64,000 bases of DNA from an uncultured Planctomycetia bacterium (GTDB lineage Bacteria > Omnitrophota > Gorgyraeia > Tantalellales > Tantalellaceae): contig CAYPCX010000003.1 in the NCBI GenBank assembly GCA_964409365.1, forward strand, positions 84,577-148,576, read 5' to 3'. This document shows positions 15,288 through 62,998 of the stretch, one piece after another (the stretch's first letter is position 1; each line of letters starts with the position of its first letter). The position numbers and the translations under genes were made by a program. The notes under the pieces are model-generated. The model saw nothing but the letters and a program-made list of their open reading frames with translations, was not told where the DNA came from and searched no databases.

Positions 15288-15345
15288 AAATAGGCAACAC
15301 ACCGGGAGAGGCACGAAGTGCCTCTCCCGGTGTGAAAGTAATATT

Positions 15346-57309: not shown

Positions 57310-58767
57310 ATGTCGGCAAAAATATCGCAAAATATTAACAGTTTTTTCACGAAACAGCTGATCAATTTTTTGCCTTTCTTTTTAAAAAGGGCGTCCAAGA
57401 AGAACCTTATAAGTATGTTCGAACTTGCGGCCAAATTCGCCCACACTGAAGAGGACAAAAAAGACATATCCGGAACTATCTGGCGATTGAAGAACAATTA
57501 CGGGACCCTGGATTTTTTCAAACGCCTTATTGATGAACTAAATCCGCGATGCATGAAAAAGTTTTTCGAGAACGCGCATCTGGTCCATCACGATATCAGC
57601 AAAATAGGCCTGGAATTCCGGGAAAGGGAAGGTTTCCGCGGTCCCGATGTCCTGGTGCTCGATGTCACGGCCAGATGTAATTTGCGATGTAAGGGATGCT
57701 GGGCCGGGGAGTATGATAAGAAGGCCGAAGATCTCGATATGAAGCTGATCGAAAAAGCACTGGATGAGGCAAGATACAAAATAGGGCTTAACCATATCGC
57801 CGTAACAGGGGGAGAACCTCTTATAAGAGAAAACCTTTTTGACATCTTTGAGAAATACTCCGATTGCCAATTCATACTCTATACCAATGGGACGCTTTTA
57901 ACGGACGAGAAGATAAAGAAAATAGCCGAATTAGGGAACGTTTATGTGCTTTTAAGCATTGAAGGCAATGAGGAATATACTGACGCGAGAAGGGGGGAAG
58001 GCGTATATAAAAAGGTCATTAACGCCATGGAGAGGTTGAAGAAAGCCGGTGTCATATTCGGCTTTTCAAGCTGTCCTACCCGCGAAAATATCGAATACCT
58101 GGCCAGTGACGAGTTCGTCGATACCATGCTTGAAAAAGGCTGCCATTACGGTTTCTATTTCCAGTATGTTCCGGTCGGAAGGGATCCCGATCCTGAATTA
58201 ATGCCCACGCCCGAGCAAAGGAATGCCGTAAGGTATAGTCTTTACAGGCACAGGAACACAAAACCGATACTTTTGATCGATTTCTGGAATGACGGCCCTG
58301 AGGTCAACGGTTGCATGGCCGGTGGCAGGAAATACCTTCATATAACGAATAACGGTGACATTGAACCCTGTGTTTTTGTCCATTTTGCCGTAGGTAACAT
58401 CAAGGATATGAGCATAACAGATGCGCTTAAGTCGTCTTTTTTCACTGAGATAAGGAACAATATTCCCTATGACGGCAATCTTTTAAGGCCATGTATGATA
58501 ATCGACAGGCCTTACGTCCTAAGAGGCCTGGTCGAAAAACATAAAGCTTACGCTTCCGACAGGGATGCGGAACTTTTGTTCACCAAGTGCAAGGATGCGC
58601 TTGATAATTATTCCAAAGAATTAAGCGAAGTATTGGACAAGGAATGGGAGGCGGGAAAATGGATGTGTTTCTACCCGTCACCGGAGAGGCCCGAGATAAT
58701 AGGCCTTGATAAAGACAAAGCCGATGTCACGGCCTCGCATGGAACCCGATCTCCCGTTTCCGCTTAG
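57310..58767 (+). CDS. Radical SAM enzyme with SPASM/twitch-like C-terminal domain and ~110-aa N-terminal extension (RRE-like)
   Basis: Cx3Cx2C CNLRCKGC; GGEPL glycine-rich SAM motif; C-terminal NGCMAGG...ITNNGDIEPCVF...RPCM Cys cluster. Confidence 0.8.
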   Translation: MSAKISQNINSFFTKQLINFLPFFLKRASKKNLISMFELAAKFAHTEEDKKDISGTIWRLKNNYGTLDFFKRLIDELNPRCMKKFFENAHLVHHDISKIGLEFREREGFRGPDVLVLDVTARCNLRCKGCWAGEYDKKAEDLDMKLIEKALDEARYKIGLNHIAVTGGEPLIRENLFDIFEKYSDCQFILYTNGTLLTDEKIKKIAELGNVYVLLSIEGNEEYTDARRGEGVYKKVINAMERLKKAGVIFGFSSCPTRENIEYLASDEFVDTMLEKGCHYGFYFQYVPVGRDPDPELMPTPEQRNAVRYSLYRHRNTKPILLIDFWNDGPEVNGCMAGGRKYLHITNNGDIEPCVFVHFAVGNIKDMSITDALKSSFFTEIRNNIPYDGNLLRPCMIIDRPYVLRGLVEKHKAYASDRDAELLFTKCKDALDNYSKELSEVLDKEWEAGKWMCFYPSPERPEIIGLDKDKADVTASHGTRSPVSA

Positions 58768-59269
58768 CCGGGGGCGGTTCCATTAGCTTTCTGATGGCTT
58801 CAAAGATCGCACAGATCTCCCCGTCATGTTTTTCAACTTTTCGTTCCAACTCGGCTAATTTATGCATTAGCTCCTTATGCGTGACGACCATTTCTTTGAG
58901 TTTCACAAAAACTCGCATAATAGCAATGTTTACCTGCGCTGCCCGTTCGCTGTTCAATACGCTGGAAAGCATCAAGATCCCATGCTCGGTGAATGTATAA
59001 GGTAGATACCGTCTGCCTCCTCGTTTTGAGGTTTCAAATTGAAACCTCAAACTTTCGCTTTCCGCTCTATTCAGTTGGAACATGAAGTCCTTTGGAAAAC
59101 GATTTTTATTGCGCCTTACAGCCAGATTTAAAGATTTCGTGGGTACTCCATAAAGGATCGCCAGATCTTTGTCCAGCATCACTTTCTTGCCCCTGATCAG
59201 CAGTATTTTACCCGCGATGGTCTTCTGCGAAATCAGTCCTGTCATAACCGTTTTCTTCCGTTTCCCCAT
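58727..59269 (-). CDS. ORF6N-domain (KilA-N-like, phage antirepressor-type DNA-binding) protein, copy 1
   Basis: RNKNRFPKDFMFQL, RGGRRYLPYTFTEHGILMLSSVLNSERA; C-terminal coiled coil + EPPPAKRKR. 41-nt convergent overlap with the radical-SAM gene. Confidence 0.75.
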   Translation of the reverse strand: MGKRKKTVMTGLISQKTIAGKILLIRGKKVMLDKDLAILYGVPTKSLNLAVRRNKNRFPKDFMFQLNRAESESLRFQFETSKRGGRRYLPYTFTEHGILMLSSVLNSERAAQVNIAIMRVFVKLKEMVVTHKELMHKLAELERKVEKHDGEICAIFEAIRKLMEPPPAKRKREIGFHARP

Positions 59270-59312
59270 AAAACCTCCCTATCCTCAAATTTAATACTGT
59301 GGATTCCATACC

Positions 59313-59352
59313 CTCACAATATTAGACACATTTCCCGCCCAAATTCTTTCAC
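59313..59352 (-). promoter_or_regulatory. Variant copy of the conserved ECF-type promoter motif (TGAAAGAATTT-N-GTCTAATATTGTGAG) upstream of ORF6N copy 1
   Basis: Same spacing and 15-nt -10/start block as the ECF sigma gene promoter at 2198-2235. Confidence 0.45.
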
Positions 59353-59462
59353 TTTTTTTTGAATTATCCAGGTATATGCTTGCCATAAGAACGCCTTAGA
59401 CTTATAATTTGTACTCAAGGCCTGTTAATAGGGCAGGGCACAAAACGTAAAGGGAACACATA

Positions 59463-60119
59463 ATGCTGAAGAAAAAGGCTGAAGCGATAATCAGGGATAT
59501 CGGCAGGGCCGACCGGGTATTCACGATCAACAGGAATAAAGCCGCTTTTATAGTCGTCGATATGCAGAACTTCGTCTGTAAACCCAAGAAAAGCCCCAAA
59601 AAGATGATCGGCATTAAAAAGGTCGTCACCAATATCAACAGGATCGCCGACCTGTGCCGCCGGACGAACATACCCGTAATATGGATAAGGCAGAATTTCA
59701 CCATGAAAAAGGGCAAAAGCGACGGCGGCCTGTACGATAAATTCCACAAAACGCCTTTATCCCGCGAGATAACGAACCGAAGGCCCGGCACGGAGATCTA
59801 CAAAGAGCTCCATTTCGACGGGAAAAAGGACCACGTCGTGTTCAAGAACAGGTACAGCGCTTTCGAGAGCAAAATATCAAAACTGGATAATTTGCTGAAG
59901 AAGCTCGGGAAGAAACAGCTGATCTTCGCCGGTGCCGCCGTGAACGTATGCGTTGAAAGCACCATCCGTGACGCCATGCAGAAAGGGTATGAAGCCACGC
60001 TGGTCTCCGACGCGACCACGACTTTCGACAAGGCGCTTTTGGAAGCCAGCCTGTTCAATATTAAAATATACTTCGGCGACGTCCTGGACACGGCCGGCGT
60101 CTTAAAAGAACTGGCATAA
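59463..60119 (+). CDS. Isochorismatase-family cysteine hydrolase
   Basis: AFIVVDMQNFV (Asp), K, NVCVESTIRDA (Cys) triad pattern. Confidence 0.8.
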   Translation: MLKKKAEAIIRDIGRADRVFTINRNKAAFIVVDMQNFVCKPKKSPKKMIGIKKVVTNINRIADLCRRTNIPVIWIRQNFTMKKGKSDGGLYDKFHKTPLSREITNRRPGTEIYKELHFDGKKDHVVFKNRYSAFESKISKLDNLLKKLGKKQLIFAGAAVNVCVESTIRDAMQKGYEATLVSDATTTFDKALLEASLFNIKIYFGDVLDTAGVLKELA

Positions 60120-60131
60120 AAAAGGAACCCC

Positions 60132-60911
60132 ATGAAAACACATCTTTTTTATTTTTCCGCTACCGGCAACTCATTGAAGATCGCCAATGACCTGGCAAAA
60201 GAGCTCGGAGAGACCCGGGTCTTTTCTATCCCAAAGGTCATACATGAAACCCCCGATCTATCGGCCGAGCGTATAGGCATTGTCTTTCCCATGTACTACG
60301 GGGGGATCCCCAATATCGTCAAAAGGTTTATTGGTACGATCACCCCTGAGCCGGGGAAATACCTGTTCGCCGTCACCAGCGGAAGAGACGAAAATTCCCC
60401 CATGGGCGCCCTGGACCTGGCCCGGAAACTCTTCAGGAAAAAAGGCCTGGATCTATCGGCCGGTTTCTTCGTCCGGATGCCGGGAAATTATCTTCTCATG
60501 TACGATATCATATCGAAAGAAGAGCAGGAAGACCGGCTCAAGGAAGAAGAGGCCAGGGTCAGGGAGATCGCGGGAAAGATCACCGCCGGCGAGCGCTCCA
60601 TCGAAAAAGGCTCCTTTCTGGCGAACTGGCTGCTTTCCGGGGTAATGCACGGCATCGCCTCCTCAAGATTCGCGACGGCGGACAAATACCTCCGGGTAGA
60701 CGAGAAATGTACGCATTGCGGTACGTGCGAAAAGGTGTGCCCTGTCCGTAATATCAGGCTGCGGGACGGGGTCCCGACCTGGCTGCATCACTGCGAACAC
60801 TGCCTGGCGTGCCTGCACTGGTGTCCGGCCGGTGCGATCCAATGCGGGAAGAACACGGCGGGCCGTACCCGCTACAGAAATCCCCGGATAACGCTCGAGG
60901 ATCTCACATGA
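60132..60911 (+). CDS. Flavodoxin-like domain fused to 4Fe-4S dicluster ferredoxin (EFR1-type iron-sulfur flavoprotein)
   Basis: FYFSATGNSLKIA flavodoxin start; CTHCGTCEKVCP and CEHCLACLHWCP ferredoxin motifs. Confidence 0.7.
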   Translation: MKTHLFYFSATGNSLKIANDLAKELGETRVFSIPKVIHETPDLSAERIGIVFPMYYGGIPNIVKRFIGTITPEPGKYLFAVTSGRDENSPMGALDLARKLFRKKGLDLSAGFFVRMPGNYLLMYDIISKEEQEDRLKEEEARVREIAGKITAGERSIEKGSFLANWLLSGVMHGIASSRFATADKYLRVDEKCTHCGTCEKVCPVRNIRLRDGVPTWLHHCEHCLACLHWCPAGAIQCGKNTAGRTRYRNPRITLEDLT

Positions 60912-61318
60912 AAATAATAATAGACACCAACCTGTTAGTGGCCTGTATGTTCAATAAAAGCAGCGCTTCCGCCCGGATCATACGCCAGGCCGAAGAGGGC
61001 GCTGTCGATGTGATGTGGCATCAAAAGACCCGGAACGAAGCGCGATTCATTGTAGACCAGATCCAGAGGGCGGTCCCGAAAGTGAAGATCGACCTGGACA
61101 AGGTGTTCAGGGAACAGAACGAAGTGAAAGATATGCCAAGAATTGAAGATGCTTCCGAAGACCCTGAAGACAATAAGTTCCTGGCATGCGCCGTAGCGGC
61201 CGGGGCCGATATGATCGTTTCGAACGACGCGCACCTCCGGAAGCTTAAAAAGTTTCAAGGTATTCCCATTTATACCTCTCGCCGGGCCCTGGAGATCATA
61301 AAAAAGGAACACGCGTGA
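60908..61318 (+). CDS. PIN-domain protein (TIGR00305-like putative toxin), orphan
   Basis: MKIIIDTNLLVA (Asp), LACAVAAGADMIVSNDAHL; ATGA overlap with upstream gene; ORF-track N-extension is read-through. Confidence 0.7.
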   Translation: MKIIIDTNLLVACMFNKSSASARIIRQAEEGAVDVMWHQKTRNEARFIVDQIQRAVPKVKIDLDKVFREQNEVKDMPRIEDASEDPEDNKFLACAVAAGADMIVSNDAHLRKLKKFQGIPIYTSRRALEIIKKEHA

Positions 61319-61347
61319 CGGAACACAAAGATGTCTCTATCACCCCT

Positions 61348-61881
61348 TCACATGAAACCCGATCCCCGTTTCTTTTTAGCCGGAGGCGGTTCCATTAGCT
61401 TCCTGATAGCGTCGAAAACGATCTTAAATTGTCCGTCATATTTCTTTTCCAAAGTTTCAATTTTTCTCCTTAGACTTTCATACGTCATGATCATTCTCCG
61501 CATACTCACAAATACCCGCATGATCTGAATATTCGCCTTAATTGCCCTTTTGCTGTTCAATACACTCGATAGCATTGCGACCCCTTGCTCGGTAAACACG
61601 CAAGGCAAGTATCTCCGTCCGCCCCAACTTGAGGTCACAAATTGTGACCTCAAGATTGTAACTTCTTTATTTGTAATGATAAACATAAAATCCCCAGGAA
61701 AGCGATCACGATTTCTCTTTACTGCTTGCAATAAAACCTTTGTTTGAACATCATAGAGTTCCGCCAAATCCCTATCTAGCATTACGTTATACCCCCGGAT
61801 CCGATATATCTTGGTCTTAATGTCCTCCAGCGAAACCCTTTTTCCCATGCTTTTCCCCCTTCTTGATATCTTCCTTTTCAT
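61348..61881 (-). CDS. ORF6N-domain protein, copy 2 (paralog of 58727-59269)
   Basis: RNRDRFPGDFMFII, WGGRRYLPCVFTEQGVAMLSSVLNSKRA, FDAIRKLMEPPPAKKKR. Confidence 0.75.
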   Translation of the reverse strand: MKRKISRRGKSMGKRVSLEDIKTKIYRIRGYNVMLDRDLAELYDVQTKVLLQAVKRNRDRFPGDFMFIITNKEVTILRSQFVTSSWGGRRYLPCVFTEQGVAMLSSVLNSKRAIKANIQIMRVFVSMRRMIMTYESLRRKIETLEKKYDGQFKIVFDAIRKLMEPPPAKKKRGSGFM

Positions 61882-61886
61882 GAACC

Positions 61887-61926
61887 CTCACTATATTAGA
61901 CACATCTCCCGCCCAAATTCTTTCAA
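61887..61926 (-). promoter_or_regulatory. Variant copy of the conserved ECF-type promoter motif (TGAAAGAATTT-N-GTCTAATATAGTGAG) upstream of ORF6N copy 2
   Basis: -10/start block GTCTAATATAGTGAG identical over 15 nt to the ECF sigma promoter; 5 nt then ATG. Confidence 0.45.
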
Positions 61927-61954
61927 TTTTTTCGTTTTTTTAGTAAAATAACAA

Positions 61955-62998
61955 TTGATGCCTACTAAACTCCGCTATGAAACGGACCCGTACAACCGGC
62001 TTATCCTGGCCCCCAAGGGCAAGAAAAGCCCCCTCAGGAAATACCGCCGCGTCCTGACCGGCCGCTTTAAAACAGACGCCAAAAACACCCTTATTTACAC
62101 CGTAAGGGCCCCTCTGGCGGCCGAAGGGAAGGACCTGCCCCACCAGCTCCGCCTGAAGGGGAAATGGTCCCTGACAGAGGATCATGACCTGCGCCTCACC
62201 CTGGATAAGAAGGGCAGGGACACCCTCCAGGACAAGATAACCCTCAAGGGCGAGATACTGGACGTCAAAAAGAATTCGCTCCTTTTTGCCGTCACCACCA
62301 AGACAAAAAAGAACACGCGCCTCACGTACGTCCTGGAGCTCGGCGGCACCTGGCAGGCCGACCGCAACAACCGCCTGACCTTCCACGTCCAGAAAGAAAA
62401 GGGACGCCACGATATCCTCACCTTAAAGGGCGCCTGGGACATCAATAAAGACCACCAGATCACATACACCTATGAAAAAGCCTCCCTCCTCAGGAAAAAG
62501 AAAAAGACACACACCCTCACGTTCAAGGGCCACTGGAACGTCACCGAGAGACACCGCATATCCTACGAGCTCAGCAAAGCCTCCGATCCCGCCTTCACCT
62601 TCAGGACAAGCGCCGGCATATTCGAAGGTAACCGCATTATATACGAACTGGGTATCGGCTTATCCGGCAGCTCAAAGCCCGTCAAACGCACCCTGACGCT
62701 CTCCGGCAGGTGGAAACTGCTGAAAAACGTGGGCCTCGTCTTTGAGGTGAAATACAAAGATAAAAAACCGTACTCCATGGTCTTCGGGGCCGATGCCGAG
62801 CTCACCGACAAAGACACGGTCCTCTTCCGTCTCACCAACGACATGGAGAACAAAGACCTTGAACTGTCCCTGGAACTATCCCGCAAGATACTCAAGGGTG
62901 ACGGTGAGGCGTTCGTAAGGTTCCTTAGGCGCAGGTCCTCGTCATTCCCGCGCAAGCGGGAATCTGCCGTATACGTAGGAGCGGGGTGGGGATTTTAA
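61955..62998 (+). CDS. Repeat protein with ~45-aa beta-strand-like repeats (LKGxW...H.ItY), no signal peptide, unknown function
   Basis: Repeats LKGKWSLTEDHDLRLT / LKGAWDINKDHQITYT / FKGHWNVTERHRISYE / LSGRWKLLKNVGLVFE. Confidence 0.45.
   Translation: MMPTKLRYETDPYNRLILAPKGKKSPLRKYRRVLTGRFKTDAKNTLIYTVRAPLAAEGKDLPHQLRLKGKWSLTEDHDLRLTLDKKGRDTLQDKITLKGEILDVKKNSLLFAVTTKTKKNTRLTYVLELGGTWQADRNNRLTFHVQKEKGRHDILTLKGAWDINKDHQITYTYEKASLLRKKKKTHTLTFKGHWNVTERHRISYELSKASDPAFTFRTSAGIFEGNRIIYELGIGLSGSSKPVKRTLTLSGRWKLLKNVGLVFEVKYKDKKPYSMVFGADAELTDKDTVLFRLTNDMENKDLELSLELSRKILKGDGEAFVRFLRRRSSSFPRKRESAVYVGAGWGF

Follow-up and report, generated by a model that had tools for sequence, protein, structure and literature searches.

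Binding sites that lie inside coding sequence are familiar from the lac operator O2 in lacZ, the gal operator OI in galE, parS in Bacillus subtilis spo0J and the lambda origin in gene O, and to our knowledge none of these classical systems has a site embedded in this way throughout a protein family. The KilA-N and Bro-N families of large DNA viruses, the baculovirus bro genes among them, are said (in work by Iyer et al. from 2002 and in a Pfam clan) to have DNA-binding domains related to ORF6N, and we are not aware that an embedded palindrome or a recognition code has been described for bro or KilA-N genes. Our literature search returned neither for these genes and found ORF6N mentioned in passing only, never with regard to binding sites. 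ORF6N (PF10543) is a very large family without an assigned mechanism, listed only as a candidate defense gene (PDC-S05), and the PDC-S05 representative reported to protect E. coli against T7, T5 and T4 had a Virulence_RhuM domain (bioRxiv 10.1101/2024.09.26.614923). Here we report on two ORF6N genes, ORF6N-1 and ORF6N-2, in a 64,000-nucleotide stretch of contig CAYPCX010000003.1 (assembly GCA_964409365.1), the whole of which we call the window. Each gene contains a 27-bp palindrome, the ORF6N box, whose variable bases covary across the family with a predicted recognition helix of the encoded protein. From these sequence data we consider it probable that each of the two repeats is an independent copy of one self-contained ORF6N module, present at least three times in the genome, with homogenized ends and a putative operator embedded in the gene.

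58727..59269, minus strand: ORF6N-1 gene, 180 aa (Pfam PF10543, E 1.4e-32; PADLOC PDC-S05, E 4e-57; AlphaFold2 model)
61348..61848, minus strand: ORF6N-2 gene, 166 aa (PF10543, E 3e-33; 1-nt deletion in the tail)

The ORF6N proteins

The two proteins are 55% identical (E 8e-64), are encoded on the same strand and both belong to PF10543, which bears out the view, put forward in a preliminary description of this DNA, that they are related paralogs. They score 112.3 and 114.4 bits against the PF10543 gathering cutoff of 27.8, over profile positions 2–86 of 86, and a Pfam scan at E ≤ 0.01 finds the ORF6N domain only in both; the PDC-S05 profile PDLC04856 is matched with E values of 4.3e-57 and 1.1e-55 over positions 6–175 of 177. 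The longest open reading frame (ORF) of ORF6N-2 spans 61348–61881 with an alternative upstream ATG at 61881, the likely true start being that at 61848, which has a ribosome-binding site, is chosen by gene callers on public contigs and gives the 166-residue protein. The AlphaFold2 model of ORF6N-1 (predicted local distance difference test score, pLDDT, 78) places a helix-turn-helix at residues 33–40, turn, 44–53, in blocks with a pLDDT of ~90, followed by a long helix at 108–145. The modeled layout is thus an N-terminal winged-helix-turn-helix-like ORF6N domain, a long, predicted coiled-coil helix and a basic C-terminal tail. Its best fold matches are weak (E ≥ 0.38) and comprise the winged-helix-like DNA-binding domains of Dachshund/SKI, MerR and RacA; among solved structures there is no sequence match to the ORF6N proteins. 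The codons of the predicted recognition helices are located as follows.

59108..59140, minus strand: predicted recognition-helix codons of ORF6N-1 (T44–N54, TKSLNLAVRRN); helix 44–53 in the AlphaFold2 model, columns 45, 46, 49, 50 and 53 covarying with box bases
61711..61743, minus strand: predicted recognition-helix codons of ORF6N-2 (TKVLLQAVKRN), from alignment to ORF6N-1 and from the code described below

Column 49 of the alignment, which will be of importance below, is Leu49 in ORF6N-1 and Gln in ORF6N-2 (Q41 in its own numbering). The family counts at least 8,000 homologues at E 1e-10, from many phyla and from viruses; cultured phages contribute a homologue in 4 records only, all unannotated. 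On plasmids of Legionella, Bacteroides, Sulfuricurvum, Segatella and Treponema, ORF6N genes adjoin site-specific integrases, a recombinase, a Tn3 transposase or a DNA methyltransferase. Several of the plasmid-borne proteins of cultured bacteria are ~300 aa long and have an additional C-terminal domain.

The intragenic palindrome

59025..59051, no strand assigned: 27-bp palindrome of ORF6N-1, TTTGAGGTTTCAA-W-TTGAAACCTCAAA, TT type, perfect 13+1+13, encoding SLRFQFETSK and pairing with Leu49
61628..61654, no strand assigned: 27-bp palindrome of ORF6N-2, CTTGAGGTCACAA-W-TTGTGACCTCAAG, CA type, perfect 13+1+13, pairing with Gln at column 49

The window holds four perfect palindromes with arms of at least 10 bp, and two of these are the ORF6N boxes. 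The other two, at 2151–2185 and 15298–15334 (17-bp arms), are unrelated to the box in sequence and could be terminators.

Homologues as distant as 34% protein identity, 102 distinct ones derived from genomes and 41 from viruses, have a palindrome centered on CAAWTTG at the same position in the gene. The mean hairpin score at this position is 11.7, compared with 3.35 in synonymous-codon shuffles (maximum of 200 shuffle means, 3.6). When 139 sequences are aligned without gaps, 84% of the cells pair, versus 27–44% in slid controls; both sides have changed in 14 of 16 pairs, and cells with double changes number 390, versus 138 ± 10 in shuffles, with none of 500 shuffles reaching the observed values. 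The core CAAWTTG is near-invariant, G-U pairs are rare and the symmetry holds up to the dyad. A subgroup of genes reads the palindrome in a second frame, giving ELV(T/A)(I/N)CxRF in place of LRSQ(F/I)(V/A)TS while the flanking protein motifs are unchanged, and in the AlphaFold model of ORF6N-1 the box-encoded peptide falls in a low-confidence loop (residues 74–90). Since the palindrome is kept in two frames and encodes a peptide in such a loop, selection acts on the nucleic acid. In seven ORF6N genes from other phyla and viruses (L011, L026, L058, L065, L066, L090 and L105) an insertion after the box carries a second palindrome, usually abutting the first at 27-nt spacing; tandem boxes therefore also occur inside coding sequence.

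A code between helix and box

The relation between protein and box was derived from 153 distinct genes, as the mutual information between the variable box bases and the protein columns. Columns 45, 46, 49 and 50 reach z-scores of 27–59, with all other columns outside the box-encoded segment at ~11 or below, except column 88 (offset 8, z 24). Box types are named after the bases at positions −5 and −4 from the dyad, and the pairings read as follows.

CA at −5,−4: Gln49, 68 of 68
CG at −5,−4: Glu49, 31 of 32, with Arg46, 31 of 32
GC at −5,−4: Arg49, 14 of 14
TC at −5,−4: Lys or Arg49, 29 of 30
TT at −5,−4: Leu49, 3 of 3
G at −7: Lys45, 77 of 84
C/G at ±3: Arg53, 156 of 156

Three genuine core-variant boxes, with A/T at ±3, go together with Asn, Ser or His at residue 53. 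As can be seen, residues 45, 46, 49, 50 and 53, which lie on one face of the helix, map in order onto outer to inner half-site positions, and the pairings agree with common amino-acid-to-base preferences. The coupling persists among close relatives: of the gene pairs with a background identity of 70% or more, 310 agree in both box and residue 49, 175 differ in both and 18 are discordant. Second-frame genes with CG boxes (L043 and L188) also have Arg46 and Glu49, so that the coupling is with the DNA rather than with the peptide it encodes. In a hold-out set of genes from cultured bacteria of six phyla, all outside the derivation set, 12 of 12 fit the code. Judged from this covariation, the palindrome most likely serves the ORF6N protein encoded around it as its cognate site on duplex DNA. 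ORF6N-1, with Leu49 and a TT box, and ORF6N-2, with Gln at this column and a CA box, are therefore predicted to differ in specificity, each matching the box of its own gene.

Stand-alone boxes

Boxes also occur outside ORF6N coding sequence, and their distribution in the loci scanned was as follows.

Within 300 nt of an ORF6N match: 17 stand-alone boxes in 48.6 kb
Farther off in the same loci: 6 stand-alone boxes in 456 kb
Control loci without ORF6N: 0 stand-alone boxes in 152 kb

This amounts to a ~27-fold enrichment within 300 nt of ORF6N genes. Many of these boxes lie 15–70 nt upstream of an ORF6N start codon, and the words enriched upstream of ORF6N genes in other phyla are extra copies of the palindrome. 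A Legionella plasmid has the identical palindrome within its ORF6N gene and again 18 nt past the stop, and the Segatella gene L188 has a second box in an N-terminal extension. In the window itself the only boxes are the two intragenic ones, and just beyond its end the same genome has, in intergenic DNA, three pairs of adjacent boxes with centers 27 nt apart (locus L003, 980–1035, 2080–2135 and 2215–2272), one of them directly 3′ of an antitoxin gene. These pairs are of GC, CG and TC type and match none of the three ORF6N genes seen in this genome, which are of TT, CA and CA type; further ORF6N paralogs are therefore predicted elsewhere in it.

Shared ends and further copies

59308..59384, minus strand: shared 5′ element of ORF6N-1 (core 59310–59358; the extended part is common to the third copy and to the leader of a HigB-like gene)
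61884..61932, minus strand: shared 5′ element of ORF6N-2, ending ~25 nt from the start codon of a divergent 346-aa gene at 61958
58727..58810, minus strand: 3′ coding tail of ORF6N-1 (..FEAIRKLMEPPPAKRKREIGFHARP*), apparently homogenized among the paralogs of the window genome, as judged by identity and codon sharing

The ORF6N modules resemble each other most at their two ends. Upstream, 59310–59358 and 61884–61932 are 94% identical across 49 nt, and the 41-nt core of this repeat occurs in two places only, with 0 expected in shuffles. The preliminary description had reported ~45 bp of near-identical 5′ sequence and homologous gene-plus-upstream modules in direct orientation, and both statements stand, the similarity reaching outside coding sequence through this 49-nt element. 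At the 3′ end, repeats within the coding sequence pair 58753–58804 with 61365–61416 (52 nt, 85%) and 58727–58754 with 61340–61367 (28 nt, 79%). The same description had homology continuing ~20 nt past the stop codons, which does not hold: a 1-nt deletion in ORF6N-2 (AAACGGG-GATCGGG) has produced an earlier stop, leaving the ancestral last codons and stop as a 9-nt remnant at 61339–61347, and the third copy shares nothing beyond the ancestral stop. Where the tail would otherwise end in ..KKKREIGFHxxP, the deletion (61339–61367) gives ORF6N-2 the C-terminus ..KKKRGSGFM; this may mark the onset of decay of the gene, or the protein may not need its last residues.

A third module, alike in 5′ element and 3′ tail, lies ~7 kb beyond the window end, on public contigs carrying the exact window proteins. 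A fourth copy of the 5′ element (L003, 1283–1340), ~1.1 kb upstream of the third ORF6N gene and ~9 kb beyond the window end, precedes not an ORF6N gene but a Gp49/HigB-like toxin and HTH_37 antitoxin pair, with ~75 nt in common with the leader of the third copy, so that the element appears to be a portable leader of several accessory genes. Between copies 2 and 3 lies an acid-resistance-like cluster (pyruvoyl histidine decarboxylase, amino-acid permease and Orn/Lys/Arg decarboxylase; L001, 1362–5952), and several unrelated gene sets are therefore interleaved with ORF6N modules. In a related genome of the same sample series, an 8-kb stretch holds four ORF6N genes, two in tandem, with related, genome-specific 5′ elements. 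This genome also has a further ~100-nt repeat upstream of its ORF6N leaders (L005, 3118–3222 and 9160–9260); one copy is an orphan that no ORF6N gene follows, possibly the scar of a lost module. In a survey of 80 loci, one genome per species, 12 had same-strand clusters of 2–4 ORF6N genes within 4 kb, from at least eight phyla, and a Parabacteroides distasonis record has three tandem ORF6N genes beside leuS. The ORF6N family thus tends to form clusters of diverged paralogs that all point the same way.

Ends and bodies of these modules group differently. The last 84 nt are 0.80–0.89 identical among the three copies of the window genome and 0.62–0.69 identical to copies of the related genome; thus the ORF6N-1 tail is 0.63 identical to that of R2, the gene of the related genome to which its body is closest. 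The body of ORF6N-1, by contrast, has a nucleotide identity of 0.79 to R2 versus 0.61–0.65 to its own genome mates. At sites encoding the same amino acid, 18 of 24 codons in the ORF6N-1 tail are common with copy 3, versus 1 of 18 with R2, and ORF6N-2 has a 3-residue deletion in common with R1 of the related genome. The derived tail motif PPPAK(K/R)KR is found in the window-genome copies and in none of the other listed homologues, ~40 of which have PPEKPKRR and most others close variants. For the 5′ element, 45–46 of 52 positions match within the window genome versus 27–42 between genomes. With tails and 5′ elements grouping by genome and bodies grouping across genomes, the ends appear to have been homogenized inside the window genome, the bodies being of old descent. 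The pattern would fit gene conversion of the ends as well as an exchange of bodies between ends that stayed fixed.

The 5′ element is lineage-specific, there being no real match to it in public genome or metagenome contigs: a search of 185,579 species genomes gave none, and a single metagenome-contig match was rejected as a chance hit in eukaryote-like DNA. Among 90 ORF6N genes of other phyla, none has an element of the window type upstream. By eye, a sigma-54-like GG-N10-GT spacing can be discerned in the element, but the conserved GC is missing and the site is not claimed here. The genome-specific part of the element resembles, again by eye and perhaps by chance, a half-site of the resident boxes: in the window genome ..AAATGTGTC.. 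occurs at 59310–59358 and 61884–61932, where CA-type genes use TTGTGAC, and in the related genome ..AGTTGTC.. occurs upstream of ORF6N genes, where GA-type genes use TTGTCAC.

The radical SAM junction and the bracketed genes

57310..58767, plus strand: radical S-adenosylmethionine (SAM)/SPASM gene; residues 471–485 (58720–58764) are read-through into the ORF6N-1 tail, antisense
59380..59408, plus strand: sigma-70-like promoter match TTGCCA-17-TATAAT, 11/12, a consensus match only, facing the isochorismatase operon
59463..60119, plus strand: isochorismatase-family hydrolase, first bracketed gene (PF00857, E 3e-40)
60132..60911, plus strand: EFR1-family flavodoxin-ferredoxin, second bracketed gene (NCBIfam NF038196, E 9e-73)
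60908..61318, plus strand: PIN_3 domain protein, third bracketed gene, 136 aa (PF13470, E 2e-17; TIGR00305)

The radical SAM gene converges on ORF6N-1 and overlaps it by 41 nt (58727–58767). In an alignment of 11 orthologues (55–87% identity), most stop at ...GLDKDKK or a few residues from it and two have unrelated extensions, whereas the window protein runs 14 residues beyond the orthologue end, all encoded by the ORF6N-1 tail read antisense. The radical SAM C-terminus has therefore been remodeled, as had been proposed, on the evidence of the 41-nt overlap and of 14 extra codons relative to orthologues of 76–87% identity. These sequence comparisons support the view that insertion of ORF6N-1 on the radical SAM stop codon remodeled the 3′ end of that gene. 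In the nearest relatives (radical SAM protein 76–87% identical) no ORF6N gene follows the radical SAM gene, and synteny is lost on both sides, so that no island borders can be defined.

The isochorismatase has its nearest homologues, 53–56% identical, in unrelated contexts, and in the neighborhoods of these the isochorismatase-EFR1-PIN trio was not found together. The start of the toxin-like PIN_3 gene overlaps the EFR1 stop by 4 nt (ATGA, 60908–60911); no recognizable antitoxin gene lies upstream of it, and it is an odd operon partner for two redox/hydrolase genes. The sigma-70-like match at 59380–59408 borders on the distal end of the extended ORF6N-1 5′ element, with a slight overlap.

The preliminary description took the repeats for the ends of a composite mobile cassette, or a recombination bracket, around accessory genes in a lower-GC segment. 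In base composition the bracketed genes are host-like: their GC content is 0.50–0.55 and that at third codon positions (GC3) 0.63–0.71, versus window medians of 0.557 and 0.725, which does not bear out a lower-GC segment for these genes. Low GC is found instead in the ORF6N genes (0.42–0.46; GC3 0.48–0.53), in their intergenic leaders (0.34–0.38) and in the radical SAM gene (0.45; GC3 0.53). The remark in that description that integrase and transposase are missing from the window does hold, no such family being on record within ~10 kb either side of the modules. The six contigs recovered for ORF6N-1 and the one for ORF6N-2, from several samples, are reported with the same gene order. Given this constant order, the additional copies elsewhere, the short exact identity discussed below and the host-like GC, the cassette reading was not upheld, and the isochorismatase, EFR1 and PIN genes would simply lie between two insertion points.

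Proposed mechanism and alternative explanations

The module as we see it would comprise a promoter-like 5′ element of ~50–80 nt, the ORF6N gene and, within the latter, the ~27-bp palindrome centered on CAAWTTG. Covariation suggests that the ORF6N protein binds this palindrome as a dimer on double-stranded DNA, with helix residues 45, 46, 49, 50 and 53 reading half-site positions 7/8, 4/5 and 3 from the dyad. The bound site would probably bring about autoregulation, either as a roadblock or by looping to upstream boxes where these are present, and, being embedded, it would always travel with its regulator during transfer. Among the paralogs of this genome, the 5′ element and 3′ tail would be homogenized by gene conversion or by exchange of bodies between fixed ends. 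Candidate cellular roles are that of a transcription factor of accessory or toxin-antitoxin regions, or a PDC-S05 anti-phage function. As the same boxes are embedded in ORF6N genes of mobile elements and viruses, one may tentatively think of chromosomal ORF6N arrays as immunity-type repressors that silence incoming elements with an ORF6N gene of matching type, a role we regard as doubtful; if true, it would explain the listing of ORF6N as candidate defense system PDC-S05.

Several observations weigh against parts of this proposal. The operator role is drawn from covariation. Upstream of the window ORF6N genes there is no palindromic box but only the 5′ element, which is not a palindrome and was not called as a sigma-70 promoter by the consensus scan. 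In other loci, upstream boxes often differ in type from the box within the gene, and simple autoregulation is therefore not the whole story. Only three or four modules are visible in the window genome, so that the claim of concerted evolution rests on few copies, and from these sequences gene conversion would be inseparable from swapping of bodies by transfer. Finally, the PDC-S05 representative tested against phages had a RhuM domain, and the window proteins consist only of ORF6N and a predicted coiled coil.

The palindrome could instead be an RNA or single-strand hairpin, or a self-perpetuating quasi-palindrome that replication template switching keeps perfect. As DNA the hairpin folds stably (−11 to −14 kcal/mol, z −4 to −6), its arms vary from 9 to 18 in length across homologues, the motif is duplicated in some genes, and template switching does turn imperfect palindromes perfect. 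Yet G-T accounts for 9 of 47 mismatches and is no commoner than other mismatches, and the symmetry continues up to the dyad; moreover, neither hairpin model predicts a near-deterministic coupling of box to helix, which extends to second-frame and hold-out genes. An RNA element in particular is ruled against by the missing excess of G-U pairs and by Rfam 15, which gave no window hit at gathering score and chance-level hits only (E ≥ 1.4) in 58500–62200. We therefore hold these hairpin explanations to be improbable.

That each ORF6N module is a small mobile unit, its ends serving as recognition sites of a recombinase acting in trans, would account for the sharp boundaries common to three copies, for the tight fit of modules between genes, including that on the radical SAM stop, for the orphan left-end fragment in the related genome and for the recombinase genes adjoining ORF6N in plasmids of cultured bacteria. 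The 3′ end, however, is a coding motif conserved at the protein level throughout the family, the 5′ element also precedes the HigB-like gene, where no ORF6N 3′ end follows, and it is absent from the species genomes searched; with no inverted or direct terminal repeats and no target duplications either, such a unit is unlikely. If the modules were instead a recent local duplication whose middles diverged fast under diversifying selection, it would be natural for the ends to be far more alike than the middles. Against this, the ORF6N-1 body is nearer to R2 of the other genome (79%) than to its genome mates (61–65%), and ORF6N-2 and R1 have their 3-residue deletion in common; this makes the lineages of the bodies older than the ends they share, and a recent duplication highly improbable. 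The composite cassette, finally, in which isochorismatase-EFR1-PIN is moved, deleted or duplicated as a unit by way of ORF6N modules serving as direct terminal repeats, draws on the direct orientation of the repeats, on similarity beyond the coding sequence, on the junction at the radical SAM stop codon, on an isochorismatase with no close orthologue in relatives and on the integrases, recombinases or Tn3 transposases that often adjoin ORF6N genes in cultured bacteria. It has to be set against the missing transposase or integrase within ~10 kb, flanking units that encode ORF6N only, module borders at which neither terminal inverted repeats nor a target-site duplication were found, and a longest exact match between the two modules of 19 bp, by our own estimate below the need of efficient RecA-dependent recombination. 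The repeat has further copies outside the pair, GC3 of the bracketed genes is host-like and all recovered contigs show the same arrangement, and we consider such a cassette very unlikely.

Comparison with known systems

The ORF6N modules, which we regard as probable carriers of an embedded operator, can now be set beside the systems they resemble. For annotation they call for caution, in that direct repeats of ORF6N-type modules are not to be equated with transposon ends. The locus does look like a composite transposon in having two homologous 600-bp units in direct orientation around three accessory-looking genes, and differs in having no transposase, inverted ends or target duplication, in an exact identity limited to 19 bp and in its copies elsewhere. 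With repetitive extragenic palindromic (REP) sequences, their hairpin-forming doublets (REPINs) and the associated transposases (RAYTs) it has in common that short palindromes, often two side by side, cluster around a single dedicated type of gene. The ORF6N product is, however, a winged-helix-turn-helix protein and not a Y1 (IS200-like) transposase, the palindrome lies within the gene, and the boxes in the DNA seen are few, not hundreds per genome.

To PDC-S05 the likeness is one of sequence and of neighborhood: the window proteins match PDLC04856 almost end to end, and toxin-antitoxin genes lie near them (the PIN gene, and the HigBA-like pair beyond the window end). KilA-N and Bro-N genes are similar in occurring as several diverged paralogs per genome and in their association with variable regions, but ORF6N forms a separate Pfam family, PF10543, and the genes here are bacterial and chromosomal. 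If the embedded-operator reading is true, it would explain the occurrence of ORF6N genes as diverged arrays, and the family would gain a DNA target and a code by which specificity becomes predictable from five helix residues.

Closest in organization are lac, gal, ParB and lambda O, in which a DNA-binding protein system likewise has a palindromic or iterated site within an ORF; the geometry of looping is similar too, many ORF6N loci having a second site at the promoter, ~250–300 bp away. The difference is that the ORF6N site lies in the regulator's own gene, in essentially all members and in two frames, and covaries with the helix. If confirmed, this would be a rare cis-element that coding sequence has kept in two reading frames and across phyla. 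Regulators paired with their operators are a well-known kind; what would in our judgment be new is the family-wide embedding of that operator in the regulator's own ORF, in two frames and with a simple code.

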